Source of the DNA: Selaginella moellendorffii
Taxonomy: Eukaryota > Plantae > Lycopodiophyta
DNA: 64,000 nucleotides
Direction of reading: 5' to 3'
Assembly: GCF_000143415.4 (NCBI RefSeq)
Contig: NW_003314279.1
Location: 1,742,493-1,806,492, forward strand
This document shows, piece after piece, positions 9,291 through 61,397 of this stretch. Made by a program: the position numbers and the translations under genes. How positions within the stretch are numbered: the first letter of the stretch is position 1; each line of letters starts with the position of its first letter. The notes under the pieces were generated by a model. That model saw nothing but the letters and a program-made list of their open reading frames with translations. It did not search any database and was not told the DNA's origin.

Positions 9291-9448
9291 AACAACCCTA
9301 ACACCACAACCCAGCCACTTAATACTCTCTCCACCTTCCACCACTAAGATGCCCCAACCATGTGGCTAGAGTGAGGTTCCAATGAGCTACCCACACTTGA
9401 TAGCTCGGGGGAGGTAGATGTAAGCTCTTGAGTTTGAAGGGGGACCCT

Positions 9449-11809
9449 ATTCCAGTTGTTTGGTACCAAGTTGAAGTTTAGTACAGCTTACCATCCTCAA
9501 ACCGATGGGCAGACCGAACGCATGAATGCTCAAGTTGAGGATTATTTGCGGTACTATGTCGCGGCGGACCAACGCGACTGGGTTGAGCATTTGGATACGG
9601 CAGAAATATGTTATAACAACACATTTCATAGTGCTATAGGCTGTTCTCCATGGGAGATATTGCAAGGGAATGCTCGTGGGGTTCCTCAACAGATCGTTGT
9701 CCCGAAACCAATGACCGAAGTGTTGGTCCCAGCCGTGGAAACTTATGTGGAGCAGCTACGCCAAGGTTGGTCTAAAGCTACCGAGGCGATGGGCAAAGCT
9801 CAGGATAGGTATCGACATGATAAGGATCAGCATCGTCGGGATGTATCCTATCTAGTGGGAGATCAGGTGTGGCTATCTTCCCGAAACTTGAACATCAAAG
9901 GTTCTTTGTCTCGGAAGCTCTTCCCGAGATATGTTGGACCCTATCGGGTGTTGGCACAAGTTGGTGATGTATCCTATAAGTTGGATCTTCCGGATGAGTT
10001 GTCCCATGTACATGATGTGTTTCATGTCAGTTTATTGGCACCATATCGTGTTAATGCGGATCGCTCTATGGACATTCGTCCCCCTCCGGAAGTTGTGGAT
10101 GGTGATATGGAGTATGAGGTCGAGGCGATTCTCTTGTTCTCTTGCTCGTGGTGGTCGTTCCAAGGAATATTTAGTTAAGTGGAAAGGTTACCCGACTTGT
10201 GAATCAACTTGGGAACCTCTTAGTAATCTTACCCATGCTCGTGAGCTTGTCACGGAGTATGAGAATTGTAATAAAGACTAGCTTTTGTAATAAATCTTGC
10301 AAATTAATAAAGTAAAATATTTCTATCACTCAAGTGTCGTTTCTCTCGATCAATTGTACTTGGGTCAGTTTTGGCAGGTTGACTTCGGCACTTCGGTGCC
10401 TGGGTCCAATCCATAACCACGGGGATACCTATTCTAGACTGATCACAAGTCCCCGCCTCTCTCTTGATGACTCCTTTTCAAAACAAAAAAAAAAGGGGCG
10501 TGGTCGTGTAAACAACTTAATCTGCCAGTTTATAATAGTTGTCTAAATCTTCCCGACGGGGTTGATTTCTTGCTCAGGGGCAGTTGGGCCTCTGGCCTTC
10601 TCCCTATATCCCTGCGGGCAGGGATGTATCATTCCTTTGTAAGCTGAGTGGTACTCAGAGCAGCAAGGGTGGCTAACTCCGTTGGTCATTTCCTTGTCGG
10701 CGACGGCCGGAGGGTGTCTGAGTCTTAACGTCTTTGGACGTAGAGGAGAGGTCATTCCATAACTCATTTAAGTCGGTGTGTTTCCCACATAGTGTGCTTT
10801 CCGTTAACTTTCAGAGTTGTTTCCTTGACGGTTTGCTAGACTCGGGTATGCATCGACGAGGACGTCGATCTTCTCCAAGGGGGGGAGAGTGTCGCGAATG
10901 TGACTTCGGGTATCGAAAGATACTTGTCGGCTAGTCCTTATGGACACTCTTTCCTTACTGCCATGACGGCAGGAGGTCGGTACAGTTGGTTCCCTTTATC
11001 GTTCCCACTTGAGCTAGTTGAGAAACTGGTCAATGACCGTGCACTTAAATTGGATAAACATAAGGTAGGAACCCTATGTGTTTCTTGCTGAGCATACTCG
11101 GCCTGGTTTGAGAAACTCGTATCATTGGCTTGCACTTGCTGGTATCAAGAACCCCCGTGATATTGCGACTAGTCCCTCAATATTCACTAGATGATAGCTT
11201 ACCGTGTTTGCCAAACACCCTCGCTATCACGCCTTTTGTGTTGGTCTCATTTTGGTCCCAAATGCTATTTATGGAAAGTGTCTAGATTAGCTCATTTGGC
11301 ATATCTACGGAATGTAGAGATCGGCCTGAACACAATGGTGTTTGTCCCGTGTCCAAATTCGCAATCTAAGGACATTCCATACTTAATAAGTTTCGGACTT
11401 GTCCTAGAGACTAACTCCTGGTACTAAGGGAGGCTTGGGGTGAAAGCCCAAAGCGTATGTCCCTCAAGGGGGGGGGGGGGCTATGGGGGGTTCCAAATGT
11501 ATAGTAGGGATAGTGGTTGGAATGCATGTCTGACCACCTGAGACATTAGTTTGGCTCCCGCTGGGCTGTGTCGCTCCTTGTTCTGCGTCCGGCTTGGGTC
11601 TAAGCCCAAGCTCCACGCTGCTCTAGTCAGTGGAGTACCCTCCTTCTCGCGTTAGGCCACCGGTATGCCAAAATTGTGCCAGACTCCGTCTGACACCATT
11701 TTGCGTGCAGGTGCTGGATACGGGGAGCTGGTGCTCGTGGGATTGTACCGGACCCTCGTTTCGTAGCGCAACGGGCTTGGAGTTCGGCTCCAAATTCAAG
11801 TGCGCTACA
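9449..11809 (+). mobile_element. 5'-truncated Ty3/gypsy chromovirus: integrase C-half, chromodomain, 3'UTR, PPT and 3' LTR (autonomous relative of family B)
   Basis: ORF 9456-10178 has STAYHPQTDGQTER...RYVGPY...VFHVSLL...EYEVEAIL. After a frameshift, EYLVKWKGYPTCESTWEP (chromodomain) ends at 10281. PPT AAGGGGGGGAGAG precedes the LTR TGTCGCG at 10890, which ends GCGCTACA at 11809. Confidence 0.9.
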
Positions 11810-18319: not shown

Positions 18320-20137
18320 ACCGAGTCCATGATCAAGTCCAAAATTGACTCTAAAACCGAGTTCAAGACTAAGTCCGAGATCGAGTCCAAGATTGAGTCT
18401 GAGACCGAGTTCAAGACTGAGTCTAAGATCGGGTTTGAGACCGAGTCCGAGATTGAGTTTGAGGTAGAGTCCAAGGTCTTGTCCGAGATTGAGTCTGAGA
18501 TTGAGTCCGAGACCAAAGTCTGAGGTTGAGTCTGAGATTGAGTCCGAGATTGAGTCCGTGACTGAGTTCGAATACTAATATAGGTCATGGGGTGAAAGCC
18601 CAAAGTGTGTGTCTTTTGTGGCCAGCAAGCAAGTACATGGGGGAGTCAAGTGAAATGGGAAAAACCCACTGATAAAAAAGTCAAGTCTGCTAGTAGCGTG
18701 GGAAATAACATATGCTTTAATTGCAGTGAAGCAAGACATTTTTCGTGGGAATGTCCCTACCTGAAGAAGGCTAGAGTCAATATGGCCATTAAGTTGGGTG
18801 AAATTTAAATTGAGGTATGTGATTTAGTCCCTAGCTCAAAATTACTTATTACATTAGCAACTTTGGTAGAGAGTTGTTCACAACATCTACTAGCCCTCTG
18901 AGGGAAGCTTGGAGGTAGCTTTGTTAAGATCATTATTTACATGAGTGTGTTAAATAATTTTGTGGCTATAGACATAGTTCAACAAGCTGAACTAATAGTG
19001 CAGCTGCTAGGTGAACCAAGGACTATAGGTTTGTTCAAGGTAGCTAAAGCACCGATGATGTACTTTAACAAACAAGAGTCGAAATAAGGACATGGAAAGT
19101 AGACATGGATTTCACTGTGTTGAATATGGCAGGATTTGACGTGATCTTTGGGATGGATTAGTTCAATCTGTTTGTGGTAGTTTTGCATGGACAAGGTAGG
19201 AACATGTGGTACTGTCGAATGCTTGAGGAGAATAATCCAGGGTGGAGGCTTAGGATCTAAAAGTAGGTAAAGTAAGGCCAAAAACTCCTACTTAAACTTA
19301 GTGTTCGAGAGGACAACTCACTAAAGGAACCAATGTAGCATTTTTGTGTTTACTCTCGAAGGGGAGTGGAACAGAAGAAATATTGTTAGTGATCTAGTGG
19401 GTGTTAAACCAATTTTGAGATACTATGCTAGAGGAGTTATCAACTAGGTTACCCCCCACACGACTGATTGATTGAGTTAGTTGAGGGTGCTAAGACAATG
19501 GTTCGTCCCCCCTATTGGTTGAATGAAAAGGAATTTGAGGAGCTCGAAAGAGAAGACAAGTTGTGCAGAATACAATGGACCCATCTATTATAAACAGAGG
19601 AAGATATATGTTCCACAAGAGGAGTTAAGGAAAGTAGTCTTAAAAGAGTGTTATTGTGGACCTCTTGTGGGACACAGTGGAGTGCTCAAGATGATGGGTT
19701 TACTCAAGAGAAAGTATCACTAACCAGACATAGCTAAGGATGTCTAGGACTATGTAAAGATATGTCTAACATATTACCAAGTCAAAACCATGACTAATGC
19801 TAGTGGGTCTTGTTACAAAGCCTCCCAATTCCAGATCGTCCATGGAAATGTCTTACAATGGACTTCATCACAGGACTCCCCCCAAGTAAGGGGTTTAATG
19901 CAATATTTATGGTGATGGACCAGTTTTCGAAGATGGCACATTTCATACTCACCACAATGAAAGTGGATGCGGAAGGTGTGGTAAAGCTGTTCTTTGAACA
20001 AGTGGTTTGAGTGTGGGGAATGCTAGAAGAAATTTTCTCAGATCAAAATAAGATTTTCACCAGTAGGTTCAGGAGAACTCTCTTAGAACAGTATTGCACC
20101 AAGTTGAAATTCAGCATAGTTTATCACCCACAAACAA

Positions 20138-20185
20138 GTATTGGGTATTAATTCCAAGTTTGATGGCAATACCACTTCTCAACAA
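20138..20185 (+). other. Intron-like insert 1 in the integrase of the family A copy at 17007
   Basis: YHPQT A|GTATTGGG...CTTCTCAACAA|AT GGA CAA ACG. 48 nt long; the acceptor has decayed from AG to AA. Confidence 0.7.
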
Positions 20186-20601
20186 ATGGACAAACGAAAA
20201 GGGTGAATATCAGCTAGAGGATTATTGTGATACTATGTTTCTGGAAACCAGACTAATTAGGTAAGTCATTTGGAATTTGCAAAAATATGCTATAATAACT
20301 CACCACATTTAAGTATTGGGGTGAGTCCATGGGAAGTTATCAATGGACGAGCTATTGAAGGTTTTGTGGAACTTAGCGCGGCCAAATATCATGGAAAGTT
20401 ACTTGCAATGGAGGCATTCATGGCGGAAATACTCAACATTTGAAATCTAGTGAGGGATTCCTTGGAATGGGCTCAATAAAGGCAAAATAAATATATAAAC
20501 TAAAAGCGCTAGAATGTAGAGTTCCAATCTAGGAATAAGGTATGGCTGAACACCAAGAGCCTAAGGCTACCAAGAGGGATCAACCGAAAGTTGACCCAAA
20601 G

Positions 20602-20652
20602 GTAAAATGAATGTATTCCTAAAAATGAATTGATATTAAGTTCTTTAAGCAA
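20602..20652 (+). other. Intron-like insert 2 in the integrase of the family A copy at 17007
   Basis: CAA AG|GTAAAATG...TTAAGCAA|G TTC GTG GGG. 51 nt long; the acceptor has decayed from CAG to CAA. Confidence 0.72.
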
Positions 20653-21928
20653 GTTCGTGGGGCTTTATGAGATTGAGGCTCGAATTGGTAAAGTGGCTTA
20701 TTGCCTCCGGCTTCTTTGGGAGATGGGGAAGATGCACTATGTGTTCCACGTGAACTTACTCAAGCTATACTTTGATTATCCACTTCACAAGGACCAAATA
20801 AAACCTTTACTTGAGGTGATTCAAGGGGAAAAGGAATACAAAGTCGAGGCCATCCTCAATGCACACAAGAGCGAATGACAAGGATGTGAGGTGAGGGAGT
20901 TCTATATGAAGTGGAAAGGATTTCTACACTGTGAAGCAACATGGGAACTGAAGGAAAACTTAGCAAATGCGTAAGATCTAGTGGAGGAATTTTTGCAAGG
21001 TCAAACTCTATGTACTTAGACAAAATTTAATTAAAGAATCAATTTGAGAAATTGAGCAATGTCATATGTTAGGACCCAAAGGCGTGCTGAAAGTAAGCTA
21101 ATTAGCATGCTAGCTAGATTGACTAGGTGAAAAAAACTACACCCGACTCTTTGCAGGGATGTTGAATTCATAAATGTATTGTATGAAGGTTTTGTTCGAG
21201 TCCCAACCCTCTAGTAAAGCAAGGCTGGGTTCAAGTCCCAACTCTATACTAGGGTGTGGTGAGGTGAGGGGTATAGAGACACTTATATTCTATTGTCATG
21301 GGCTCTTGACTAGGGAGGCTAATTTAGGCATACTGCTAAGTGGAGGGGATGCCTCTGGAGACATGGTCAACAAATCGTAGAATTAAAAAGAGACATTCAA
21401 TGTGGGCGTCAAACTTCTTATATAGGTGAGGGAGTTGTAAGGAACCAACTCCCCGAGGTGTTGTAGGCTAAAGGATCCCCGAAAGCACGACCAAAATGAT
21501 AAAAAGTTTATCGGATGAGACCGAGTCCAAAATCAAGTCTGAGACTGACTTAGAGACTGAGTTCGAGACCAAGTCCGAGATCTGAGATCAGGTCTAAGAC
21601 CGAGTCCGAGGTCGGGTCCACGATCGAGCCTGGGATCAAGTCTGAGATCGAGTTTGAGCCCGAGTCTAAGGTCAAGTCCAAGATTGAGTCCAAGACTGAG
21701 TCCAAATACTGTGAGGTACAGGAACCAGTCTTGAAGAAACTCTTCAGTAGTGCTTCCAAACTGACTTGAAGTTGAAACTAAGATTTAGGGGCCTTAGGTA
21801 GGAGTGAACATAGACTTGGGTGGTGCCGAAGGTGCCACCCGAGGAAGTGATTCAGAGTAGCTGCCACTCCTGAAAGGGACATTGACTACAGTGCTCCCAG
21901 CTTATGTAGAGTGACGCCCCAATTAAGT

Positions 21929-41136: not shown

Positions 41137-44100
41137 GAGCTGTTTGTTTGGACTCCCCGAATAAAAATCACTTTTCTTCAAGCTCCTCACTACCTTTCAT
41201 CAAAGCCACCACCAATTCCCGCAACTTCCGCATCCCATGTCTCCTTTTTTTCACCGGACAATTAGGACTCAAGGCTCTAGCACTACTGGACTTGGGTGCA
41301 ACTTCCTGCTTCATGGACACGGACTTTGCTGCCCGACATCACGTTCCTCTTTCTCCTACCATATGGGATCTGAGGGTTGAAGGTATCGGCGGGCATTTTG
41401 TGTCTCCATCTTCTGGACTTAGGGAAAAGTTGCCCGTTCGAGTACACATCAGGTCCACTGTCACTGATATCGCCTTCAACATCATCAACAGCAAGTCCTC
41501 CTCTGTGGTGCTTGGCCTCCCTTGGTTCCAACTACATCAGCCTCAAATCTGTTGGTAGGAATTACAGCTCATCTCTCCCACATCACCATCTCCCACAGCT
41601 TCCCCTATTGTTCATCCAGTCCGAATCAGGAAAAGTTCCCTAAACTCAAATCGGGGTTCTATTCCTGACTTTACAAAGTTTTCACCCTCTTCTTTTCCCT
41701 TTCTTCCATCTTTCACTAGACAGTATCCTCATCTCATCATTCCATTCAGTCGTACACTTCCTCCTATCTCCACAATCACTATGAAAGAACTTCTTCATGA
41801 AGAACTTATTTTCCTTTTTGCTTTGCATGTTTCTCCTGTCAGTCTTCCTAAGAAGTTTCATGATTTTGGGGATGTGTTTGACAAGAAAAAAGCTAGTGTA
41901 CTGCCTGTTCATCGGCCTTATGACTGTCCCATTGATTTACAGGAAGGAGCATCACCTCCGTGGGGGCCTATCTACGGGTTATCCCCGTCCGAGCTTAAGG
42001 CCCTCAAAGAATACGTGGATGAGAACCTTGCCTCGGGGTACATTCAGCATTCGCAGTCCCCGGCTGGAGCGCCTGTCTTCTTTGTCAAGAAGAAGGATGG
42101 GATTTTGCGGCTAGTCATCGACTACCGAGGTTTGAACAAGGTGACTATTCGAAACTATTATCCACTGCCCCTGATCTCGGACCTGTTGGAACGCCTCGGC
42201 GGTGCCCACTTCTTCACCAAGATCGACCTCCATGGAGCATACAACCTGATCCGGATCCAACCTGGTGATGAATGGAAGACTACGTTTCGAACCCGCTATG
42301 GCTACTTTGAGTACACTGTCATGTCATTTGGCTTGACAAATGCTCCAGCAATTTTCCAACACATAGCAAATGACATCTTTTGGGAGTTTCTTGATCAGAT
42401 GGTGATCATCTACCTTGATGACATCCTCATCTACTCAAAAACTCAGGAGGAGCATGACGAGCATGTGCAGAAGGTGTTGGCAAAGCTGCGGGAACATAGC
42501 CTATACACGAAGCTTGAGAAATGTTCTTTCGATCAAGAGTCTGTGGAGTTCCTTGGGTTCATTGTCACTCCTGAGGGTATTACGATGGATCCTGCCAAAG
42601 TCAAGACTATTCTCGAATGGGAGCCTCCACAATCAATGTCGGACGTTCAGGTTTTCCTTGGCTTCGCCAACTTCTACCGCAAATTCATTGATCACTACTC
42701 TGATATTGTCCTTCCTCTCACGCATCTCACTCACAAGGATGTTCCCTTCTCTTGGTCTGCTGCTACCCAGCAGGCCTTCGACACACTCAAGGCGGCCTTC
42801 AGTTCTGCTCTTGTCTTGATCCACGCTAATCCCTCACAACCTTTCTTCATCGAGGCTAATGCCTTCGACTTTGCCATCGGTGCTGTGCTGTCTCAACTTG
42901 GAGCAGATCAAGAATTTCATCTGGTCGCCTTCCATTCTCAGAAATTCCAGCCTGCAGAGATCAATTACAAAATCCACGACAAGGAGCTCCTTGCAATCGT
43001 GGATTCTTTTGGAGAGTGGCATCGTTTCTTAGAGGGGGCAGGCCATCAAACAACAGTCTGAACGGATCACAAAAATCTTGAGTATTTTGCCACTTCCCAA
43101 GTTTTGAGCCGTCGTCAAGCAAGGTGGGCACAATTCTTGAGTCGGTTTGACTTTGTTATCAAGTACAGACCTGGAAAGTTTCAAGGCCTTCCTGATGCTC
43201 TTTCAAGGTGGTCCTATCTCAATCTCAGGCCTGGTAATCTTGCCTTTGATCAACAGGATCAAGTTATCCTTGGTCTTGATCGGCTTCAAGTTATGGCAAT
43301 TTCCCTAGCCCCTCAGGACTCCTCCTTGATGGATGCAATCAGAAACGATCTTCAATCTGATGACCTCGCCAGCGACATTTTCCCCCATCTTCAGGCTAGA
43401 CACCCAGTGACTCCTGATTGCCGGCAATTTTACGAGTTCGAGTTCTTAGATGGCTTGTTGTACCGTGGGGAGCAGCTTTACGTTCTTGAAGGTGATGCTC
43501 GAAGGTTGGTCCTAATGGCGGGCCACGATAGCCCGACTGCTGGTCACTTCGGCATTGCAAAAACCTATGAGCTGGTTGCACGGGACTTTTGGTGGCCTCA
43601 CATGGACGACTACATCAAAGCTTTTGTTACCTCCTGTGACACTTGCGCCCAGAATAGGGTACCTCGCCACCTTCCTTCAGGTTTGCTTCGTTCCCTCTCG
43701 GTCCCTCCAAGTCCTTGGGAATCCATCTCCATGGATTTCTTGAGTGATCTTCCAAATTCTTGAGGCTTCAATAACATTTTAGTCGTAGTGGATCGCTTCA
43801 CAAAGATGGCGCACTTCTTGCCATGTACCAAGGAGTTTTTGGGCAAGGACATGGCAAAATTGGTATTCAGAGAAACTTTCCGACTTCATGAGATTCCTGT
43901 AGATGTGGTTTCGGATCGAGGACCTCAGTTCATCTCTCATTTCTGGCAACGGTTTCTGCAACTGCTTGGAGTGAAGGCCAACCTCTCTTCGGCGTATCAT
44001 CCTCAAACTGATGGATAGTCCGAGCGAACGATTCAGACGTTGGAACAATTCCTGAGGTGCTTCATCAACTATCATCAGGATGACTGGTTCGATATCCTTC

Positions 44101-45485
44101 CCCTTGTTGAGTTCTCCTATAACAACTCTGTTCACTCCTCTCTTTGAGTTTCCCCCTTCTTTGCGAACTTTGGCCGAAATCCCCGATTCAATCTCTCACT
44201 TCCTTCTCCATCTGAATCCTCTCATTCTAATCCTCACTCTGAGACATTTGTCTCCAGCCTCCAAGAAATCCACAACTCCATCTCCTTCCACCTCCATCGT
44301 GCTCAGGAATCTCACAAAACATTTGCCAATGTCCATCGTCAGGATTGTCCCCCTGGGGATAAGGTCTGGCTCCTCAGGCGAAATATCTCCACCACTAGAC
44401 CATGTCCCAAACTCAATTTCAAACGCTTCGGGTCTTTCCCTATCACTGCTATCATTAATCCTGTCACTTATTGCCTTGCACTTCCCTCCTCATTATAAGC
44501 AACCAAAGGGAACAACTCGAGAGACGATCCATAGGGGTTCAAATATAGAGGGAAAGGGCCCACGAATAAGAGTGCACCCCCTTTTCCAATCGGTTATGGG
44601 TCTTGCGATATTTGGGGTTAAGCGTCCTTGGGTTTGAATAGTACTGGGCTGGGTGACCTCCCGAGAAGTCCAAACTTAAGAGCTTACATTTGGTATCGGA
44701 GCGGGTCTTGAGTCCGACTCTGTTGGTTGGCTAAGGGAATCACACCACATGTTGATTGACATCTGGCTGGCCCAATTTGCTCCTGCTGGGCTCGACCCGA
44801 GGGGTAGGGTGTCAAGAGAGCGGGGCTCTCAGGAGAGCTGCGGTTCTCAGCTTCCGTTCACAAGGGCATGAACTTGCAGGGAAGCGTGGTGGATTGTAAG
44901 CAACCAAAGGGAACGACTCGAGAGACGATCCATAGGGGTTCAAATATAAAGGGAAAGGGCCCATGAACAAGAGTGCACCCTTTTTTCCAATCGGTTAAGG
45001 GTCTTGGGATACTTGGGGTTAAGTGTCCTTGGGTTTGAATAGTACTGGGCTGGGTGACCTCCCGGGAAGTCCAAACTTAGGACCTGACAATCATATCAAT
45101 TTCACCCTGTTTTTCACTCCTTTCTCCTTGAGCCTTATATTCCCAGTCCTATTCCAAATCGGGTCATTCCTCCGCCTCCACCAGTGCAACTCGAGGATGG
45201 ATCTGAGTACGAGGTTTAGGACATCCTTAATTCCAATATCTCACGGTCTAAACTCTACTATCCTATTCCAAATCGGGTCATTCCTCCGCCTCCACCAGTG
45301 CAACTCGAGGATGGATCTGAGTACGAGGTTTAGGACATCCTTAATTCCAAGATCTCATGGTCTAAACTCTACTATCTAGTTGACTGGAAGGGTTATGGAC
45401 CTAAAGAACACACTTAGGAACCTACGGACAACCTGATTCATTCTTCTAACCTTTTTCAGGACTTCCACCGCTGCTATCCTTCTTG
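41109..45485 (+). pseudogene. pol (protease, RT, RNase H, integrase, chromodomain), starting in the -1 frame relative to gag
   Basis: ALLDLGATSCF; IIYLDDILIYS; FFIEANAFDFAIGAVL; GHFGIAKT...CDTC; SAYHPQTDG; EYEV*DIL...YLVDWKGYG. Interrupted by stops, a Cassandra insertion and a 114 bp duplication. Confidence 0.9.
44494..45089 (+). mobile_element. Cassandra TRIM, full-length (596 bp), inserted in the integrase
   Basis: 195 bp LTRs at 44494-44688 and 44895-45089. 5S-like segment GTTAAGCGTCCTTGGG...AGTACTGGGCTGGGTGACCTCCCGAGAAGTCC at 44617-44671. PBS TGGTATCGGAGC. TSD CTCAT/ATCAT. Removal restores LPSSYQFHPVFH. Confidence 0.95.
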
Positions 45486-46280
45486 TCCCAGTCCTCATTC
45501 TTTTTCTCCATCTCCCGTCCCTCACCGCCCATCTCATCCTCCTCCTCGTTCTCATTCATGTCCTCATTCCACTCGTTCTTGAGGAGGGGGTGCTGTCAGG
45601 AATCCCCCAATTCTTGCCACATTCCTAACTCTCGCCGGATTCCTGACTTGCAGACCATATTCCTGACTCTCGAGACACTTCCCTATTCCTGACTCTCCAT
45701 TTCCCGTATGATTCCTGAGTCTCAAGCCACATTCCTGATGATGATGTGGCGCCTCCTCAACCTCAACTATATTTGGGCCGTCCTCGATCCAAGAGTGGTG
45801 GAGCTTCATCAACCTATAGTATATATAGGTTAGCTTTGTTCCATTTTTCCACAATTTGAATCAACACCAGTCTAAGGCCTTTTTTTCGTTATTAACTAGC
45901 TTTTCTCTTTGTCTTTTGCATTTTCTAGTCTTGATCTTGTTGGGGGTCTTGACACTGGGTGACCTCTCAGAAATCCAAACTCAGGAGTTTACACTCTGTC
46001 TCGGACCCGATCTCGGATCTTGGACTCGGTCTCGAACTTGGTCTTGGAGTTGGCCTCAAACTTGGTCTCTCAAACTTAGTCCCATCTAATGAACTCTTTG
46101 TTGATCATTTTATTCATAAACCATTCCGTTTTTGTAAGCCAATACAAACTAATGAAGGAGTTGGAATTGACTTTTGTTAGTTTAAACCTTAGTAAATAGT
46201 TTGTATAATGTAACCCAAAAGGGATATTAACTTTTGGGGCTAAGGCAATTGCATTGAATAGAGTCTGGAGTTGGTGTAGA

Positions 46281-47052: not shown

Positions 47053-47374
47053 GTAAAAAAGTGGCTCTTATGCTTTTCTAGAACAGTGACTTTTGTGCCT
47101 TTCTTCTATAATGATATGCTTGATGGCAAGCTGTAATTTGCATTTAATTACACTTTATGAGAGTAGTGAGCTAACACAAGGATATGGGTACTCCACCAAC
47201 TAACATAGTATGGAACTTGGGGTTAGACCCAAGCCGGATGCAAAACAAGAACAAGCACACAAGCGGGAGCTAGACTATGCCTTAGGTTGGTCAGCCATAC
47301 CCGACCTACCCACTATTCCTTGGTCTAAAACACTTTTCATAAATAAACCCTTTCTATTTCAAGACAATCACTTT

Positions 47375-50300
47375 CCAGAGATTGTCTTGAACACAATGGT
47401 GTTCGTCTCATGTTCAAATTTGCAATCTAGGGATATTCAATATTTAGTAAGTTTTGTCCTGGCATGGCTGACTAACCTGAGGTATAGTTTAGCTCCTACT
47501 TGCATACCTATCCTTGTTCTACGTCTGGCTTGGGTCTAACCCCAAGTTCCATACCATGCTGGTTGGTGGAGTACCCATATCCTCACATTAGGCCACTAGT
47601 ATATTGAAATATTGCCAGACTTTGTTTGGCTCTGTTTTGTGTGCTGGTCCTAGCATTGGGATGCTAGATGCTCTAGAACTGTTCCAATTCACTCCGTGTT
47701 CTTGTCCCTTCACTTTTTGGGCTGTATGCTCAAAAGTTGCTCCGTGGTCCAATTTCGTGGCTCCTTGGCTCCATACTTAGGAGTTTAGCTCTGTACCTTC
47801 ATTTAATGGCCAAAAGCTTTGAAACTTAGGTTTCACACTGCTGTCCTTTGAATGTGGCATGTGGCACATGGCATATAATATGTGGCATATGGAAGGTTTA
47901 GGTTCCACTTTGTGGTTATTCTATGGTAAATCACCGTAGGGTAAAGGGTAAAAACCATATGTGCTACATTTGGTATCAAAGCTATATATCTCAACGAGTA
48001 CCATCCAATGAGATTGGGCAACTTGTCTCATTGCATACGTAGAGATGAAAATAATGATCTGAGTGGGTACACATTTGGGTGCTAAAATTTCACATTTGTT
48101 CCTTGGGTATGGATTTTGGTTACCTTTTTGTACCATATTGTATGAGCTTGCACTTGGGCTCATAAGATGGATTTATAAGGGGCTCATAAGAAGGATTGAT
48201 CTGTTCTATTTACATGAGTTTGCACTTGAGCTCGTAAGTGAGACACATTAGCAACTCAAGGTTACACTTTGAGTTGGTAGGATTAATGTTAGCCTATCAA
48301 TGGTTCTATGTACCATGGGTGAAAATAAACCTTCCCTGGGTTTGCTATGAGTGGCAAATAGGCTAGTCTGTAGTTGTTTAGCACAACACTAGTGGATCCC
48401 TTATAGATATGATTATAAGTGGATCAATCAAGACTGTAGGGATTAATTTATTGATTCAAGTAGTCATTGCCGTGCTCTTTCATAAACTTTTCTTGGATTG
48501 GACTGAAGGCAGTGCAAAAACAAACTTGAGGTGTAGTCAAAGTTAAGATCGAAAAGAGAGTATTTAGGGATGAAAGATCAAATACGTAAATCATTTTCTC
48601 TTTTTGGAGAGATGATTTGCAATAAGGTGTTAACTCATTGCTCGTATTCACATCATGCAATTAAGAGTCCCTACCTTAATACATGTTGGAAATGATAGTC
48701 TTATAAATAGTGAGTTATGGGATGGATAGCAGTGAAGCGTTAAACCATTTTATCTAGGCTTATTATTGAAGGCTTGGGTTACAATGCTCAATTCTTTTCT
48801 AAGGAACCTTACTATTGCTTCTTGAGTAGTTTAGTGTTGGTTAATTTTGAGTTTGGTCAGAAAAGAGTGGCATGAGCTTGTTTATGTTGTAAACAAAAGT
48901 TAGTGGTGTTAGGTGTTGTAAGTCTCTATTGGTGTGGTGTGGCATTTATATTGCATTTTGTCAAATTGAGTTGACATTTGATACTTATGTAAACCTTTAA
49001 AGTGATGATATGGGCGTTGCTTATAGTGTTGCTCAATTAATGATTAAGTCATTTTGATTTCTATATCATATCTATGTGATAGTGAATAATGTATTTACGA
49101 AGTTGTTTGGTTAAATGATGATCAACCTCAAAGTGGTTGATAGTGAAGTTAGTCTACTTGCACGTAATAACATTGTAGTAACTTTGATTGGATTCTCAAG
49201 GGTAAACCATTATGCTAAGTTTAAATTAATAACTTAATTATTGAGGGTTGCTTATTAAAGTGTTGGAAAGGGGGTTAGCATTCACTTGCTATGGTTTATT
49301 GATTTATCTGTTAGCACTTGGAGTAGATTGTTTGATGGAAAAAGCATGAGGCTAAGGCATTGACATTATTAACACTTGTGTTAGTGGAAGTAGTAATGTT
49401 ATTTCGAGTGATGAGGAATTTTCTTTAAACCTTGATTTTTTATGTTAGTTTCTTTGTTAGTGTTTTAGCTTCACATTAGATCTTGAAAGTGGTTGAAGAA
49501 GAGTGTTAATGCAATGTGGATATCTAAATATATGGTCTTTGTGATCAAGCCTTGGATGTGCATTTTACATTTTGGCAGATGTTAATATTGGATGTCGAAT
49601 ATATAGGCAAAGATGTTTTATGTTTAGACATACTGTTGGTCATGAGAATTTGTGTTGAGGTGAACTTATGTGAAATTGTTGGTAGGAGGAAGTTGGTTGA
49701 GTCTTGAAAGTTTGTGTTCTTAAACTAAGAGTCATTCTTTCTTTAGGATGGAACATTTTCCATAAATTTTCTTAGACTTTTCCAATGGCTGATCTGTTAA
49801 TCACTTTGCTCAAAAACCATTATGTTTTTATAGGCCAGTATAAACTAGTGAAGAGGTTGAAGTTGACTTCAGTTAGCTTAAACCTTAGTAAGTAGTTTGT
49901 ATAATGCAACTTGAAAGGGATGCTAGCTTTTGGGGCTAAGACAATTGAGTTGGATAGAATCTAGAGTTGGTGTAGAAAAGTGGTTGTTACACTTTTCAAA
50001 GAAGGGTGATCCTTGTGCCTTTCTTCAGTAGCATTATGCTTGGTGGCAGGTTGCACCTTGCATTTCATTAAACTCTATAAGAGTAGTGAGCTCTCATTAA
50101 TTTTGACTTGGTCTTGGTAGCCTTACACCTTAACTGAGGATAGTGATGTCCAACTTAGTTGTTTGAGGTTGAGATATTAGTACATATACTATAGCCTTTT
50201 TTTTTGTGAGGAGATTATGTACCAATATGAGTTCTACACCTTAGTTGAGGATAGTGATGTCCCACTTATTTGTTTGAGGTTGAGATATTGGTACCTGTAC

Positions 50301-51693
50301 TATAGCCTTTTTTTTGTGAAGAGGTTGTGTACCAATATGAATTCATTATAGTCTTCACTTTAGCTTCGGCTAAGTGTTTATCATGCATAGCTAGCCTCTT
50401 CGAGGTATCCTCAGAGCTATTGTCTAAAAGAGCTATTGGCTAAACATATTAGTGTGCTTATTGCGGTTGAGTTGGATTCGAGTGGTCATTTAATTCATGT
50501 TTGTCTATGAACCTGTAAGCTCCTAAGTTTGGACTTCCTGGGAGGTCACCCAGCCCAGTACTATTCGAACCCAAGGACGCTTAACCCCAAGTACGTGGTG
50601 ATTTGCTGAGTGGTGAGTGGTGATTTGCTCTTATTTTCTATTAGCTTTGTTATGGTGTTGATGGCATTGAAGTGATGTCTTGTTATTGACATTGTTGATA
50701 TTAAAATTTAAGTAAGATCAAATGTCTTTCCATATGATTGATATTGAGTTTCATTAGTATTGATGTAGATAGTGTTGATGATTTGGTTGTACCTTTGTGT
50801 TATTAACATCCGTGCATTCACTAGTTAGCAACTATATTGATGTTCAAATGAACTGAGTGGCAAGTTGAATTAATTGTGTTATAGGCGAGATTGCTTAGTC
50901 AAAGTTGAGTTTTGAGCTTTTCCTTGAAAAGTGATTTAGTTATGAACTATGCTAGCTTTATATAAGGAAGAGTTAATGATCGATATTGAAATGTTTGAGT
51001 CTTTATTGGATTTGAGTTCGGGATATATTGATCATTGATGATTCTTTTCATGCTTATTATAAATTGAGTTACATCTTGTTATAAATGGATTCATAGAGGA
51101 TCATTTAGTGATCATTGGTGGAACATAGCTCCATTGTGTTGGGTCTTTTGGATGGATGAAAATATGCTTTTTATTAGCTTAGCATTGTGAGTTTAGTTTT
51201 TGAATGTATTGAGGAGGATATTGTGGGTTGTACCATGATTTCTTCTTTAGCATTGAAGTTAATTCATGCAAGACTCATTATTCATTATTATGCAAGACAT
51301 GGCTATAGAGTTGTTTGAACTTTTGGTTCTTTGAGTTTTTATGTTTATTGTTCCATTTGTTAGAAGTTATTGGGGAATTCATGTTGGCTCATAGCTTTCA
51401 TGTTAAAGTTAGTATTTGCATCTCGCAATCATTAGCGATGATTGACTATCATATCGAATAGTTGATTATCCTTGTGAAAAATTTTGCTTCATTGTTGTTG
51501 TTATAAACTGATTTGCTGTTCTTCAGAATGGTGGATTCTTTTTTCGACAATGATTATGCATCTCTCTATTGATGGGATGATTAATGATCTTTCATGATAG
51601 TTAGTTGTTCTCCTTGATGGTTTATAGCTTTTTGCATTACCACATATTCCTTGTGGTTTGCCTTGGATTAGTCTTTTGGGTTTGAGACATCAG
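47375..51693 (+). mobile_element. Family B non-autonomous element, partial (LTR 3' part, PBS and interior)
   Basis: LTR ends GTGCTACA at 47968, PBS TGGTATCAAAGC. The interior is collinear with 32719-36663 and is cut by family A at 51694. Confidence 0.85.
50514..50593 (-). mobile_element. Truncated Cassandra LTR (5S-like end only)
   Basis: TGTAAGCTCCTAAGTTTGGACTTCCTGGGAGGTCACCCAGCCCAGTACTATTCGAACCCAAGGACGCTTAAC. It coincides with a ~440 bp deletion of the host relative to 35140-35585. Confidence 0.85.
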
Positions 51694-54600
51694 AGTAGGG
51701 AACTAACTCCCCAAGGTGTCATAATCTAAAGGATCCTTGAAAGCATAATCGAATTGATATAGAGTTCATTAGATGGGACCGATTCTGAGATTGAGTCCAA
51801 GACCGACTCTGAGAGCGAGTTTGAGATAGAGTCCAAGATCAAGTCCGAGGCTAACTCCGATATTGAGTTCGAGACCGAGTCAAAGACAGAGTTCGAAACC
51901 AAGTTTGAGATCCGAGATCGGGTCTGAGACCGAGTCCGAGGTCGAGTCCAAAATGGGGTCTGAGATCAAGCCCTAAACTAAGTCTAAGGTTAGGTCCGAG
52001 ATCAAGTCTGAGGTCCTCACCCTTCCTAAGGGATTAGGCCTTCCCTTTGGGATGGAAATGGGGGAGTAAAAGTACCCATATTGGGCCATTATGCCATCAT
52101 GTTTCCCCCTAGTATCCTGAAGCAAATGTTGCACCCAAGGCTTGGGATTTAGAGGGTCTATGATCAAGTCTTATTATAACAAAGGATGTTAGGAACCTGG
52201 AGGCTTGGTGTGCTTGGCTACTTATGCCTGCAGGGAGTGTAACCGAACCTTAAGTCTAGTGTAACTCTGGGAGGGGGATTGGGAAAGATTTGGGGAATTT
52301 GTGGATGGATGGCTAACGCTCCATTGCTCATGCAGTGAGTAGCTAAAACCAAATAGGACCCAGTAGGAGTTGGTACAATAGGCGAGAACCTTGGCAAGGG
52401 AACTTAACTAAGGCCAAAGCAGTGTTGGTTGGATAGACAAAGTAAGCTAGCAAATTAAAAAGGAAAAATTTGTGGCTTACAATTTGGTATCAAAGCCGTT
52501 TCCTCAGTTTTAGCGAAGGATAAAGGTAAATTGTTGGGAGATGGAAAAAGCAAGGCCTAAAAAAATCCAAGTGAAGACAAAACTTCCTCCAGAGTTGGAG
52601 CCTCTAGTCAAACAAGAACCTATAGATGAGGAATCCTTGCATGAGGAGGACTCCAGTGAGGAAACTTCCAAACAGGAATCTAGTGGTGAGGTTTGGTCGT
52701 CCAAGGCTTGATTGGACATTCTAGAAGGACAACTAGCACAAACCAATGTCCTGCTAGAATCCTCGTACGCAAACTAAAGTATGATGAGAAGCGGAAGAAA
52801 AAGCAAAAGACTGTAAATGCTGGCAGTGCAGAAGACATGGACTCTTTGGTGAGGACTGAGGTGGAACCGAACAAAGTCCAACAAACCGAAGTGGAATCAA
52901 TCCCCCAGGCAATTCCCAAGTACAAACCAAAGCCCTCACCAATCTTCAAGGGAGTGAACAATTATAAAGTGGTGGAGGATTGGTTTTATAATATGGAGGA
53001 TTACTTCCGAGCGTTGCGGTTACCAAGCTCGGAGAAGGTCCCATGTGCAAAACTATACTTGGTAGATAATGCTAAGTCTTGGTGAAGAACAACATAGGCC
53101 AACAAAGAACCGATCTGTGTAACCTACGTTCTGCCAAATGCTACTTTACACCTAAGGGATGAGCTGAGTAGACTGAAGTAAGCGGGAACCATTCAAAAGT
53201 ATGCGAATGCGTTTATGGCAAAGAGGATTTTTGTCACAAACATAGGAGACATAGATGCATTCCATACCTTCATATCAAGCTTGCAAACCTAGACTCGAGG
53301 TGAGGTGATGCGTTGGAACCCGACCAACTACAAGGAAGCGTTGGATGTAGCTATCAAGGTGCATTTCAATGATAACCTGTGAAAGGGGAACACAACACCA
53401 TATTTAGCAAAGGGGCTAAACCAAGGGGGATATATGGAAAAGGGAAATTCAAAAGGAGTTTCTTTAAGAATGAGTCTTCAAGGTTCCAAAAAGATAGATC
53501 CAATGGCCAACAAGAAAGTACGTGGGGGAGTCAAACAAAAAAGGACAAACCCATGGATAAGAAAGTTAAGTCTACTAGTAATGTGGGAAACAACATATAC
53601 TTCAACTACGGTGAAGCGGGACACTTTTTGAAGGAACATCCCTACTTGAAAAAGGCCAGAGCCAATATAACCATTAAGTCTGGTGAAATCCAAATTGAGG
53701 TATGTGATCCAGTCTCTGGCTCAAAATTACTCATTACACGAGCAACTTTGGTAGAGAGTTGGTACAATAGGTGAAAACCTTGGCAAGGGAACTTAACTAA
53801 GACCAAAGTAGTGTTGGTCAGATAGACAAAGTAAGCTAGCAAATTGAAAAGGAAAACTTTGTGGCTTACAATTTCATATCAAAGCCGTTTCCTCAACTTT
53901 AGTGAAGGATAAAGGTAAATTGTTGGGAGATGGAAAAAGCAGGACGTAAAAAAATCCAGGTGGAGACAAAACTTCCTCTAGAGTTGGAGCCTATGGTCAA
54001 ACAAGAACCTATAGATGAGGAATCCTTGCATGAGGAAGACTCCAGTGAGGAAACTTCCAAACAGGAATTTGGTGGTGAGGTTTGGTCATCCAAGGCTCGA
54101 TTGGACGTTCTAGAAGGACAACTAGCATAGACCAATACCCTACTAGAAACCTCATACGCAAGCTAAAGTATGATGAGAAGCAAGAGAAAAAGCAAAAGAC
54201 TGTAAATGCTGACAGTGCAGAAGGCATGGAATCTTTGATGGGGACTGAGGCGGAACTGAACAAAGTCCAATAAACCGAAGTGGAATCAATCCCCTAGGCA
54301 ATTCCCAAGTACAAACCAAAGCCCCCACCGGTCTTCAAGGGAGTAAACGATTATAAAGTGGTGGAGGATTGGTTTTATAATATGGAGGATTACTTCTGAG
54401 CGTTGCGGTTACCAAGCTCAGAGAAAGTCCCATGTGCAAAACCATACTTGGTAGATAATGCTAAGTTTTGGTGGAGAATAACATAGGCCAACGAAGGACC
54501 GGTGGCCACTTGGGAAATGATGAAAGTGAGGATCTGTGCAACTTACGTTTTGCCGAATGCTACTTTACACCTAAAGGATGAGCTGAGTAGGCTGAAGTAG

Positions 54601-57600
54601 GCGGGAACCATTCAAGAGTATGTGAATGCATTCATGGCAAAGAGGATTTTTGTCACAGACATGGGAGACATGGATGCATTCCATGCCTTCATATCTTGCT
54701 TGCAAACCTGAGCTCAAGTTGAGGTGATGCATTAGAACCCGACCAACTATAAGGAAGCGTTAGATGCAACTATCAAGGTGCATTTCAATGATAACCTACA
54801 AAATGGGAACACAACGGGGTTGAGGTCCACATTTAGCAAAGGGGCCAAACCAAGGGGGATATATGGAAAAGGGAAATTCAAAAGGAATTTCTCTAATAAT
54901 GAGTCTTCGAGGTTCCAAAAAGGTATATCCAATGGTCAATAAGCAAGTACGTGGGGGAGTCAAGCGAAAAGGGACAAAACCATGGATAAGAAAGTTAAGT
55001 CTACTATTAGTGTAGGAAACAACATATGCTTCAACTACGGTGAAGCGGGACACTTTTTGAGGGAATGTCCCTACCCGAAAAAGGTCAAAGCCAATATAGC
55101 CATTAAGTCGGGTAAAATCCAAATTGAGTTATGTGATCTAGTCTTTAGCTCAAAGTTACTTATTACATGAGCAACTTTGGTGGAGAGTCATTCACGACAT
55201 CTACTAGCCCTTCGAGGGAAACTCGAATGTAGCTTTGTTAAAATCTTTATTGACACAGGTGCTTCGGATAATTTTGTGGCTGCAGACATAATTTGGCAAG
55301 CCTGACTAATGGTGCAGCAGCTAGGTGAACTAAGGACTATAAAGTGCATTCAAAGTAGCCAAAGCACCGATGAGGTACTTCGACAAGCAAGAATCAAAGT
55401 AGGGACCTGGAAAGTAGAAATGGATTTCACCTTGTTGGACATGGCAGGATTTGATATAATTTTCGGAATGGATTGGTTCAATCAATTCATAGTATCCCTA
55501 CATAGACAAAGTAGAAACCTTGTGGTACTAGCAAATGCCCGGGGAGAATAATCTAGGGTGGAGACCCAAGATCTAAAGGTAGGGCAATATAAGGCTAAAG
55601 ACTCCTACTTGAACCTGGTGTCCATAAAAGGATAACTCACTAAAAGAACTAAGGTAGCACTTTTGTGCTTACTCTCGGTGAGGAGTGACAAAAAAACGGG
55701 AACAGAAGAAGTACCTTTAGTGATCTAGCGGGTGTTGGACCAATTCCAAGAAACCATGCCAAAGGAGCTACCAGCAGAGTTACCCCCCACACAATCGATA
55801 GAATATAAAATTGAGCTAGTAGAAGGTGCTAAGGTGGTGGTTCATCCCCCCGATCATTTGAATGAAATGGAACTCGAGGAGCTCAAGCACCAACTAGAAG
55901 AGTTGGTGGATAAAGGGTATGTTAAGTTGAGCAAGTTGCCATATAGGCATTGGTATTATTTTTGAAAAAGAAATATGGATCTATAAGTATATGCATAGAC
56001 TATCAATTACTCAACAAGTATACAAAGAAGAACAAATACCCTTTACCAAGGATTGAGGACTTGTTCAATAAGTTAGGAAATGCAAAATACTTCTCGAGGA
56101 TTAACCTAAAGTCAGGATATTACTAAATCAGGGAAGTAGAGGAAGATGTCGAGAAGACAACCTGTTGAACAAGGTATGAGAGCTTTGTGTTTTTGGTGAT
56201 GCCTTTTAGGCTGTGCAATGCGCCAGTAACATTTTCGGCGCTAATGAACCACATATTTATACCTTATCTACATCATTTCGTGGTTGTCTATATTGAGAAC
56301 ATCCTAATTTATAGCGAGACGCTAAAGGAGTATACTGAACACTTAACAAAGGTGTTTGAGAAACTAGGGGAATACAAGTTATATGCTAAAGAGAGCAAAT
56401 GTGACTTTGCTCAACAAAAGGTAAAGTTTCTCAGGCATGTGGTGGGCAAGGACGAGTTTAAGGTGGACCTTGAAAAGGTCCAAGCAATCTAGGAATGGGA
56501 GCAATCATCGAATGTACACGAGTTGAGGGTGTTCTTGGGGCTATGCAACTATTACTGAAAGTTTATCAAACATTATTCGAGAGTAGTTGTGCCTTTAACG
56601 GACCAAACAAGAAAAAGGGAAAATAGTATGGACAGCGGAATGCGAGGTGACATTTGTCCACCTCAAAGGGAAGTTGAGGAAGACTCCCGTGTTAGCATTA
56701 CCAAACTTTGGTAAAGACTTTGAGGTAGAAATGGACACTTCAAACTTTGCATTGGGTGTAGTTTTGAAACAAGACAACCATTTAATGATGTTCTTCTCGA
56801 AGAAGTTGGACAGGGCTTAGCAAAAGTGGCCTACCCATGAGAAGTAATTATTTGCCATGGTCAAGGCACTCAAGAAGTGGCGACATTACCTTGGGAGGCA
56901 GTTCAAAATTTATATAGATAATATAGCAACAAAACACTTCTTGTCGCAACCCAACCTAAGAGGAAAACAAGGTCGGTGGGCCAATACTTTGGCCGAGTTC
57001 AATTGCGAGATTCTGTATAAACTTGGAAAGAGCAACATTGTGGTAGATGCTCTAAGTCGAAAGGCAAGCTTGAAGTTGGTGATATCTAGCACGACAGCAA
57101 CCTTTTGGGATGATGTGCGAGCAACATATGAAAATGATGGTTTTGCACAAGAAGTGTTACTAAGGAACCAAAAGGCGTGAAATGCTCACTAAAGAGGTGA
57201 GTTGCCAACGGAATATAAAACAAATTATGTGGAACACAATACACTCATCTATTACAAAAAAACAAAGGTGTAAGTTCCAAAAAAGGAACTAAAGAAGGTA
57301 GCTTTAAAAGAGTGTCATAATAGACCTCTTGTGGGACATGGTAGAATGCCCAAGACAATGGGCTTACTCAAGAGGAAATATCACTGGCTAAACATGGCTA
57401 AGGACGTCCAAAACTATGTAAAGATATGTCTAATATGTCAGTAGGTCAAAGTCATGACTAAGGCTAGTGGGGGCTTGTTACAAAGCATTCCCATTCCAGA
57501 TCGACCGTGGAAATGTCTTACAATGGGACTTCCCCGAAACGAGGGGTTTGATGTGATATTCGTGGTGGTGGACCAATTTTCGAAGATGGCACATTTCATA

Positions 57601-57787
57601 CCCACAATGGAAGTAAATGCAAAAGGCATGGTGAAGCTGTTCTTTAAACAAGTGGTTTGAGTGCGAGGAAGGCCAAAAGAGATTATCTCAGATCGAAATA
57701 AAATCTTCACTATTAGGTTCTAGAGAACTCTCCTAAAACAATATTGCACCAAGTTGAAATTCAGCATAACTTATCACCCATATATAA

Positions 57788-57834
57788 GTATTGGGTATTA
57801 AGTCAAGTTTGATGGCAATAACACTTCTTGATAG
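57788..57834 (+). other. Putative spliceosomal intron 1 (47 nt, GT..AG) in the integrase core
   Basis: TAT CAC CCA TAT ATA A|GTATTGGGTATTAA...CACTTCTTGATAG|AT GGA CAA ATG GAA AGG GTG AAT. Removal gives YHPYINGQMERVN, the HPQT(D/N)GQTER motif. Confidence 0.75.
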
Positions 57835-58252
57835 ATGGACAAATGGAAAGGGTGAATAGACAACTAAAGGATTATCTACGATGCTATGTCTCTGGAGATC
57901 AAACCGATTGGGTAAATCATTTAGGACTTGCGGAAATGTGCTATAACAACTCACCACATTCGAGTATTGGGGTGAGTCCATAGGAAGTCATTAATGGGCA
58001 AGTTATTGAAGGTCCTGTAGAACTCGGCATGGCCAAGTATCATGGGGAGTTACCCATGGTGAAGGCATTCACGGCGAAAAGACTCAACATCTAGAATTTA
58101 GTGAGGGATTCCTTAGAACCGGCTTAACAAAGGTAAACTAAGTATGCAAACTAGAAGCGTCAGGATGTAAAGTTCCAACCTGGGGAGAAGGTGTGGCTGA
58201 ACACCAAGAACCTAAGGCTACCAAGTGGGATCAGCTAGCAGTTGACCCAAAG

Positions 58253-58304
58253 GTAAAAATGCATATATTCTTGTAAATGAATTGATCTTGAGTTCCTTAA
58301 GCAG
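58253..58304 (+). other. Putative spliceosomal intron 2 (52 nt, GT..AG) just before the integrase GPY motif
   Basis: TTG ACC CAA AG|GTAAAAATGC...GTTCCTTAAGCAG|G TTT GTA GGA CCT TAC. Removal gives LTQRFVGPY. Consensus AG|GTAA donor, GCAG|G acceptor, AT-rich body. Confidence 0.82.
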
Positions 58305-60287
58305 GTTTGTAGGACCTTACAAGATTGAGGCACAAATTGGTAAAATGGCTTACTGCCCCCAACTTCCTCAAGAGATGGGAAAGATGCACTTAATGTTCCA
58401 TGTGAATTTACTCAAATCGTATTTTGAGGATCCGCTTTGCAAGGACCAAGTAAAACCTTTACCTGAGGTTATCCAAGAGGAAGAGGAATACGAAGTCGAG
58501 GCCATCATCAATGCAAGCAAGAGCAAGTTACAAAGACGTGAAATGAGAGAGTTCTATATGAAGTGAAAAGGATTTCCACACTGCGAAGCAACATAGGAAC
58601 CGGAGGAGAACTTAGCAAACGTGTAAGACCTAGTGGAGGAATTTTTGCAAAGTAGAACTCTATATACTTATGCAAAGTTCAATTAAAGTATCAATTTATG
58701 AAATTGAGTAATGGCATATATTAGAACCCGAAGATATGCCAAAGATAAGCTAATTAGCATGGGTTAGCTAGGTCGACCAAGCGTAGTGAACTACTCCAAC
58801 TCCCGGCAAAGATGTCGAATCTGTAAATGTATTCTATAGAGGTTGGGTTTGAGTCTCAACCCCACTAGTAAAGTAAGGCTAGGTTCAAGTCCCAACCCTA
58901 TACTAGGGCATGGTGAGGTGAGGGGTATAAAGACACTTATATTCCGTTGTTATGGGCTCTTGGCCGGGGAGGATAATTTAAGCACATTGCTAAGTGGGGG
59001 GATGCCCCTAGAGACATGGTCAACAAGTCGTAGGATTAAAAAGAGATGTTCAATGTGGGCATTAAACTTCTTCTATGGGTGGTGGAGTTGTAAGGAACCA
59101 ACTCCTAGAGAAGCTTGAGTAGGTTTTGAGCTCATGAACTCATGAGTTGAGCTCACAACTTCTCAAACACAAGAAAAAAATTGGTTCGTTCTAAACCAAC
59201 ATCTTTTCATTTTTCAAATTTTGATTTAATCTATATTTCCAAGTAAATTCGACCAATAAAATACAAATATAAATATAGATCCAAACACTAAAAGTAATCT
59301 AGAAACACTTCTCAAGATTTGCAATTGTAAGGCTTGCCTGATGGATGTGATGGTCGACCTTAGGATCTTGGTTTAGTTCCTGCATAAAAATGTAATAAAT
59401 GTGCTTGTAGGCTAAATATACCTCTCCCCTGTTCTCCCTCTATGTAAAATTTAGACAAGTACAGGATGGATTTTCGTAGATTCTGATAGTGTAGCTCATA
59501 GCTTTTGACGACTCAGTCATAACAACAAACTCCTTTACCAGGCACTGATGTAATTTATCCTTGTGATTGTGCATTTCAATGCCTTTGCCAGCTTGATTTT
59601 CTCTTGTGCATCTTTTAAAATGGAAGACCTATATTGTACAGCCTTCTCATTTCTAGCTAGTCGTGTATGCCAGTCTAGTGTTGACATTGGTGGCATAGCA
59701 GTATCAATAGCAACATTTGAGGAAGTCTTCAGCTTGAAACCAGCTCTCTCCAGATTTTCAATCTCTTCTTTCAAAAGATTGTAACTTCACTCAACTGGCC
59801 ACTCCTTTGGCACAGAATCTAGCTTCGAGATAATTGAGTTATGGATCCTATTTGTATGAGAACATCAATCCCACAACAGTAAATCCAACTTGATTGGCGA
59901 CCCTTTACCCCTACTCAACAACCCCAGAAACATGGTACTACTGAAGAACTTGAACCTGAGCACACAAATGCAAGACAACTCCCAATCATTTCATAGCAAC
60001 CCACATTGCTCTTGGCACTGACTCTTTAAATTGCCTAGTTGATACGAGAAACTAGCTCACGAGCAATAATCTTCTCAACCTCTGGCACTGGATTTACTTG
60101 TATAACAATTGACACTTCCTCCACTCTATGTTCCTTAGTTCTTCTCCAATGTCATGGAACAGAATGATAGTCAAACTCTGGATGGTGAGAGTTAGAAGGA
60201 GTGATGTTAGGCCCATCAAATGTTTATTGACACTTCATACAAATTGTCATCATGTCCCCAAGTGGTTCATAACTTGATGTATAGAAG

Positions 60288-60967
60288 NNNNNNNNNNNNN
60301 NNNNNNNNNNNNNNNNNNNNNNNNNNNNNNNNNNNNNNNNNNNNNNNNNNNNNNNNNNNNNNNNNNNNNNNNNNNNNNNNNNNNNNNNNNNNNNNNNNNN
60401 NNNNNNNNNNNNNNNNNNNNNNNNNNNNNNNNNNNNNNNNNNNNNNNNNNNNNNNNNNNNNNNNNNNNNNNNNNNNNNNNNNNNNNNNNNNNNNNNNNNN
60501 NNNNNNNNNNNNNNNNNNNNNNNNNNNNNNNNNNNNNNNNNNNNNNNNNNNNNNNNNNNNNNNNNNNNNNNNNNNNNNNNNNNNNNNNNNNNNNNNNNNN
60601 NNNNNNNNNNNNNNNNNNNNNNNNNNNNNNNNNNNNNNNNNNNNNNNNNNNNNNNNNNNNNNNNNNNNNNNNNNNNNNNNNNNNNNNNNNNNNNNNNNNN
60701 NNNNNNNNNNNNNNNNNNNNNNNNNNNNNNNNNNNNNNNNNNNNNNNNNNNNNNNNNNNNNNNNNNNNNNNNNNNNNNNNNNNNNNNNNNNNNNNNNNNN
60801 NNNNNNNNNNNNNNNNNNNNNNNNNNNNNNNNNNNNNNNNNNNNNNNNNNNNNNNNNNNNNNNNNNNNNNNNNNNNNNNNNNNNNNNNNNNNNNNNNNNN
60901 NNNNNNNNNNNNNNNNNNNNNNNNNNNNNNNNNNNNNNNNNNNNNNNNNNNNNNNNNNNNNNNNNNN
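60288..60967. other. Assembly gap
   Basis: Run of N. Confidence 1.
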
Positions 60968-61397
60968 NTTTCAACAGTATTATTCTTCTCACAATCAACT
61001 ATACAATTAATATCTAAGGCATTGATTGTCTCCTTGGAAAGAACACGTGAAATCTATATTCACAATGAATTTGTCCAATAAATATATCCAAGTACTGTTA
61101 AAAAATTGACATAACACTAGAATCTAGAAAGCAATTACCATTAAAGAGAATGAGATCATGACCATTGATCATGACTGTTAATTTTTAGGGTTTTACTGCT
61201 AGGGTTTGAGCAAGGAAGGGCAAGAGAAAAACGCTTGAATCTCGCAATATGCTTCAAGATGCTTCTCAATCAAGACACTAGATGCTCTTCAAGACACTAG
61301 AAACTCCTCAATCAAAGTATGTGTCTCTCTACTACTTTTCCATCTCCCCATCTTTTGCTCCTAGTTCGCAAGTAACTTGCACCTCATAGCTACTTCA

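Follow-up and report, generated by a model that had tools for sequence, protein, structure and literature searches.

Two probable spliceosomal introns in the integrase gene of a chromovirus-type LTR retrotransposon family

The window (the whole 64,000-nt stretch of DNA analysed here) contains decayed LTR elements nested in one another. One of them, copy A, lies on the + strand from about 51695 to 59105 and consists of an LTR, a primer-binding site (PBS), gag, protease (PR), reverse transcriptase (RT), RNase H (RH), integrase (IN), a chromodomain, a polypurine tract (PPT) and an LTR stub. Its 5′ LTR (51695..52481, start approximate) ends in TACA and can be aligned (72-82%) with those at 21436, 28522 and, on the − strand, 27296. 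The letters immediately 3′ of the LTR end (52484..52497) form a PBS of the TGGTATCA type, which we take to be that of tRNA-iMet. The gag region (52541..55188), labelled by sequence reading and tblastn, is decayed and carries a 1.4-kb tandem duplication detected by self-BLAST (52363-53759 and 53751-55188, 88%). Decayed PR and RT follow at 55237..56615, as located by tblastn with the intronless relative L008. RNase H, the integrase zinc finger and most of the integrase core, ending in YHP, occupy 56629..57787 in a single frame with eight stops. The rest of the coding region is split by two short inserts, termed intron 1 and intron 2 below. Between them lies a middle exon (57835..58252) encoding the catalytic Glu, the end of the core and the first half of an SH3-like domain, with six stops in copy A including one at 58152. 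The last exon (58305..58656) encodes the GPY motif of a Tf2-type SH3 domain (Pfam SH3_Tf2-1, E 9e-12) and a group I-type chromodomain, and the PPT with a 17-nt stub of the truncated 3′ LTR lies at 59077..59105. In tblastn comparison with L008, no further intron-sized insert was found in PR, RT, RNase H or the front of the integrase. An assembly gap of N (60288-60968) follows some 1.2 kb beyond the truncated LTR.

Copy A is a decayed Ty3/gypsy chromovirus, with LTRs, PBS, PPT and the domain order PR-RT-RH-IN of Ty3/gypsy elements and with the chromodomain at the integrase C-terminus that marks chromoviruses. The chromo box was read from the translation and from alignment to the chromodomain region of L008 rather than from a Pfam scan, and is of the group I type. 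A FastTree phylogeny of 121 RH-IN sequences (119 of 121 matches kept, plus two window elements) grouped copy A with the P0002/P0003 family and with proteins that we take, from their motifs, to be Galadriel-like (support 0.856). Copy A is therefore likely a Galadriel/Galahad-like element. Other repeats surround it in the window. A better-preserved intronless chromovirus, presumably Tcn1-like by its motifs, occupies 39650-45940 with long gag and pol ORFs and is interrupted near 44493-45091 by LTRs of another element. A 4-kb T-rich repeat family (32328-36663 and 47582-51693, copies 80% identical) adjoins family-A LTRs, shows no tblastx likeness to copy A, and may be a non-coding element or a site into which elements preferentially insert. 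An inverted repeat of 400 nt (71%) lies at 47179-47583.

In the window, C-to-T decay is higher in CG (0.29-0.46) and CHG (0.24-0.33) contexts than in CHH (0.14-0.16), and CHG is depleted (0.62). Judged by the methylation contexts of land plants, this pattern indicates a land plant. Introns of about 50 nt are near the lower size limit of land plants, and the size of the two introns prompted us to consider a fungal host, which was rejected on the depletion of CHG as well as CG and on the C-to-T decay. The group I chromo box has been described in mosses and lycophytes and as absent from seed plants (PMC3350952), so that its occurrence in copy A points to a likely non-seed plant host.

Intron 1 lies at 57788-57834 (+ strand, 47 nt, GTATTG..TAG, phase 1) and intron 2 at 58253-58304 (+ strand, 52 nt, GTAAAA..GCAG, AG|GT..CAG|GT, phase 2), exactly as in the original prediction. 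Also borne out was its claim that cutting at GT/AG restores the frame with no residue gained or lost. The flanks are colinear with intronless relatives, and removing insert 1 gives a distance of 35 codons from the second catalytic Asp (57691) to the Glu (57846), as in the D,D(35)E motif. Each insert breaks the frame and brings in-frame stops. Intron 1 is located four codons upstream of the catalytic Glu and, if retained, leads to a stop four codons in; retained intron 2 gives an immediate stop, upstream of the GPY/chromodomain part. The further claim that both inserts are AT-rich holds clearly for insert 2 (29% GC; GC was equally low in 13 of 1195 exon windows of the same length) and mildly for insert 1 (34% GC; 136 of 1210). 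Insert 1 can be placed in a single register, which is GT..AG, and insert 2 in five equivalent registers, one of which is GT..AG. Given their size and sites, the chance of GT..AG at both is roughly 5e-5. This figure weighs against the explanation that they are ordinary insertions of DNA into a dead source copy that were never removed by splicing, with insert-free molecules stemming from older subfamilies, an explanation that we consider very improbable. Neither insert shows a TIR, a hairpin or similarity to the other, and within the 64-kb window the inserts have no other site. Folding z-scores of 0.16 to 0.88 give no sign of self-splicing or MITE-like structures. Taken together with the molecules described below, we regard it as very probable that the two inserts are spliceosomal introns.

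Eight of the 23 runs of the same species label were covered (X1-X7 and X10). Among these, X1 is raw RNA-seq, covered for about 12% of the run with five reads placed, and X4, X5, X7 and X10 are RNA by guess. Together with a second genomic copy, their contigs show the inserts in other members of the family. Copy B, from the integrase to the start of the 3′ LTR (19545..21452, + strand), is 80.6% identical to copy A and has intron 1 at 20138..20185 (48 nt) and intron 2 at 20602..20652 (51 nt), both on the + strand, each with a GT donor and an acceptor decayed to AA. Across four variants intron 1 is 46, 47 or 48 nt long, its GT donor is intact in copies A and B and in X4 and X10, and the exon between the introns is free of gaps in the X10, X5 and X4 pieces. 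The splice signals in contigs of other copies are stronger than in the decayed window copy. In the X4 contig, intron 1 has the donor CAG|GT, a branch-like ACTAAC and the acceptor CAG; the ACTAAC motif occurs in this copy of intron 1 only. Such branch-like and consensus signals are not what ordinary insertions would be expected to carry. A direct repeat of 4 nt, AGGT, borders intron 2 of copy A (58249-58308), and CAG borders intron 1 in the X4 copy (window 57784-57838). These short repeats fit proto-splice sites, target duplication or repair microhomology, and are too short to discriminate among them. A 66-nt segment of 23% GC that adjoins the 3′ side of the chromodomain (58657-58722) could be taken for a third intron; this was rejected, as the third copy has GG instead of AG at the candidate acceptor and the X4 contig enters the segment; it is taken as 3′ UTR.

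Relatives outside the family are continuous at the two sites. An integrase fragment of a related family (9444..10260, + strand), used as an intronless control, is 37% identical to the middle exon and uninterrupted at both sites, and the window element at 41559-45468 likewise has no insert at either. The nearest relatives were 80 metagenome loci fetched with P0003, itself 43% identical to copy A; by a motif test, in which some loci end early, 68 of the 80 are continuous at site 1 and 63 at site 2. In two sets of 150 and 120 protein matches, site 1 was continuous in 111 and 76, lacked the motif in 34 and 33, and was in another state in 5 and 11, and no protein among these matches ended in a way that would suggest a retained intron 1. 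The best identity among protein matches was 43% in one search and at most 45% in another, and two further protein searches gave no match. In viral contigs the same introns were found neither by pattern scan (0) nor by protein scan; a 17-nt junction motif matched five viral contigs, which we take as chance. Since the relatives are intronless, the insert-free state is ancestral, a point that ordinary insertions would share. These alignments indicate that both inserts are a trait of the family, gained once and missing from its intronless relatives.

One contig from X10 (1291 nt, depth 59.2), a run that is RNA by guess, lacks exactly insert 2. It jumps from 58235 to 58315, and the 27 letters that bridge the jump are exon sequence, which makes the net loss 52 nt; at the joint it reads CCCAAAG|GTTC, in which the junction CCCAAAG|GTT of the original prediction is present. 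The same contig retains intron 1 in the 46-nt form also found in X5. X10 gave three contigs on 5.4 kb, with depth almost entirely at the integrase end. For intron 1, one 150-nt X1 read appears to cover 57742-57780 and 57833-57938, with five of its letters unassigned, and to skip 47 nt net; it lies under the listing threshold and was reconstructed by arithmetic as the only fit to the depth bins and read count. Against this, three molecules, the X4, X5 and X10 contigs, retain intron 1, which leaves one inferred skipping read among four informative molecules. For intron 2, one contig lacks the insert and six pieces from X1, X4, X5 and X7 enter it. For each intron, retained forms outnumber removed ones, and splicing looks inefficient. 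A molecule without both introns was not seen in runs X1-X7 and X10, among which X3 and X6 gave no match and X2 one uninformative read. At 58277, inside intron 2, an X1 read and the X5 and X7 contigs break off, and beyond it both contigs carry one and the same unrelated sequence, which has no counterpart in the window; this break is likely that of one rearranged, transcribed copy.

A molecule lacking an insert may derive from an insert-free genomic copy instead of from splicing. That RNA support consists of one contig and one read thus also accommodates ordinary insertions. Yet the X10 contig without insert 2 has, among the differences listed, four to an X5 contig over about 310 shared bases, and the X5 pieces retain insert 2, which is at odds with an older insert-free subfamily. 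A further reading is leaky retention without sorting, in which both RNAs would be packaged alike, intronless copies would arise steadily, and the X10 contig would be a genomic copy that had lost intron 2 through reverse transcription. This is consistent with a contig that, with no reported branch, lacks intron 2 yet retains intron 1, and with the near-identical X5 and X7 pieces that retain intron 2. Complete intronless copies should then out-replicate the others, yet the two window copies, about 19% apart, both retain both introns, and we consider leaky retention improbable.

The stops in the family are pertinent to whether splicing is still of use. Copy A has an in-frame stop at 58152-58154, between the core and the SH3/chromodomain part, and copy B also has a stop there (20501 region). 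Among the differences listed for the X10 contig (40 of 190) there is none at 58152-58154. The stop may therefore be family-wide, and if it is, splicing of intron 2 is useless without read-through. Were the stop fixed, either the integrase would be truncated or made by read-through, or the source would be defective. On the other hand, the residue at this place in the intronless paralog is Gln, a decay-prone codon, and copies A and B have four stops in common in 439 codons, so that parallel decay at 58152 is possible.

Selection on the family was assessed from the same copies. Between A and B the inserts differ by 12.8% and 17.6% and the exons by 18-19%; the splice donors of both copies are intact, and the acceptors of copy B are AA. 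Differences between A and B by codon position (0.16-0.20, 0.14-0.15 and 0.22-0.23) are near neutral, as in post-insertion decay. In the X10 lineage, the 12 listed positions at which X10 departs from a letter common to A and B comprise six synonymous and six non-synonymous changes. With insert divergence no higher than that of exons and near-neutral codon rates, selection is not shown.

These features would suit a family whose introns are spliceable but now irrelevant, a defective source copy having been spread by the integrase of an intronless relative, with unspliced RNA copied as the majority form. Besides the possible family-wide stop and the lack of a selection signal between A and B or in X10, every copy seen is decayed, and intronless related families are present in the same window. 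Nevertheless, exact GT..AG ends at both sites, with no residue lost, imply that at some stage splicing made a required protein whole. The X10 contig has sense codons at five of the six middle-exon stop places of copy A, and the number of stops common to A and B is at the level of decay hot spots and does not require inheritance. We therefore judge a defective source of this kind to be unlikely, although more plausible than leaky retention.

The reading that we prefer, to which we give a probability of roughly 0.6, is that one chromovirus-type family gained the two introns, that its full integrase needs host splicing, and that it is probably the unspliced RNA that gets copied. In such a family, unspliced RNA would yield Gag, PR, RT, RNase H and an integrase ending before the catalytic Glu. 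Removal of intron 1 alone would give a complete core with a stop before the GPY/chromodomain part, and removal of both introns the whole enzyme including the GPY/SH3 end and the chromodomain. Inefficient splicing would keep integrase scarce and leave unspliced RNA as the main template for reverse transcription, with a small spliced pool supplying integrase. Persistence of the introns would follow if unspliced RNA is the copied form, by the logic proposed for Ogre and BARE. Some bias against copying spliced RNA would be required, without which intronless copies would take over; as spliced and unspliced RNA share the same 5′ end, there is no evident reason for a packaging bias. A stronger version, which we put forward tentatively and with less than even odds, is that the element is autonomous: its packaged genome would encode a dead integrase, the mini-introns would hand control to the host spliceosome, and exclusion of spliced RNA would let the introns be inherited in each RNA cycle. 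If this is true, integration and, separately, chromodomain targeting would both be under control of the spliceosome.

Loss of introns through an RNA intermediate is the classic proof of retrotransposition. Among plants, Ogre and EVADE are singled out as notable exceptions to such loss in a review of 2025 (PMC12786077). The share of intronless members among the genomic copies of the present family would gauge how far spliced RNA is excluded from replication, a natural assay that can be counted. Both intron gains could be dated by comparison with intronless relatives; they concern a reverse-transcribed molecule and bear on the origin of introns. Annotation based on ORFs would mis-call such elements as dead.

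In the open-access literature searched, we found no report of introns inside the integrase of an LTR retrotransposon. Gypsy-type integrase coding sequences with one to four GT-AG introns are described in Ginger1 and GIN (PMC2836005, PMC3424704), but these are DNA transposons or host genes without an RNA stage, whereas copy A has LTRs, PBS, PPT and RT. A Ginger DNA transposon was rejected for copy A on the presence of RT, RNase H and LTRs. Penelope-like elements retain introns after retrotransposition, those characterised being in the 5′ UTR or terminal repeat (10.1101/2021.04.23.441226); they belong to another class than the LTR family of copy A. Galadriel and its sister Galahad, the latter of non-seed plants (PMC2864245, PMC3350952), are like copy A in the order Gag-PR-RT-RH-IN-chromodomain and in a group I-type chromo box. 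Neither paper mentions an intron for these elements, and the nearest relatives of copy A that we retrieved have no introns and share only about 43% identity with it.

The closest parallel in behaviour is Ogre (Ty3/gypsy, Tat; pea and Medicago), in which an intron of the polyprotein is partly spliced, enables translation of the downstream domains and is retained genomically (PMC6317226). As in Ogre, partial splicing in the family of copy A would enable a downstream polyprotein, here at another place in pol. Ogre, a non-chromovirus, has its intron between GAG-PROT and RT and an extra 5′ ORF, whereas in copy A PR and RT are colinear with those of an intronless relative and a chromodomain is present. 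In BARE1 (Ty1/copia, barley), a 104-nt intron in the ORF survives as the packaged RNA is unspliced, and the RNA pools for translation and replication are separate (PMC3735527). A bias against copying spliced RNA is shown by BARE1 to be possible. In BARE1 and EVADE, it is the unspliced RNA that carries the intact ORF, and splicing shortens this to Gag (PMC12786077). The family of copy A is the opposite: its unspliced RNA is broken, and splicing restores the frame.
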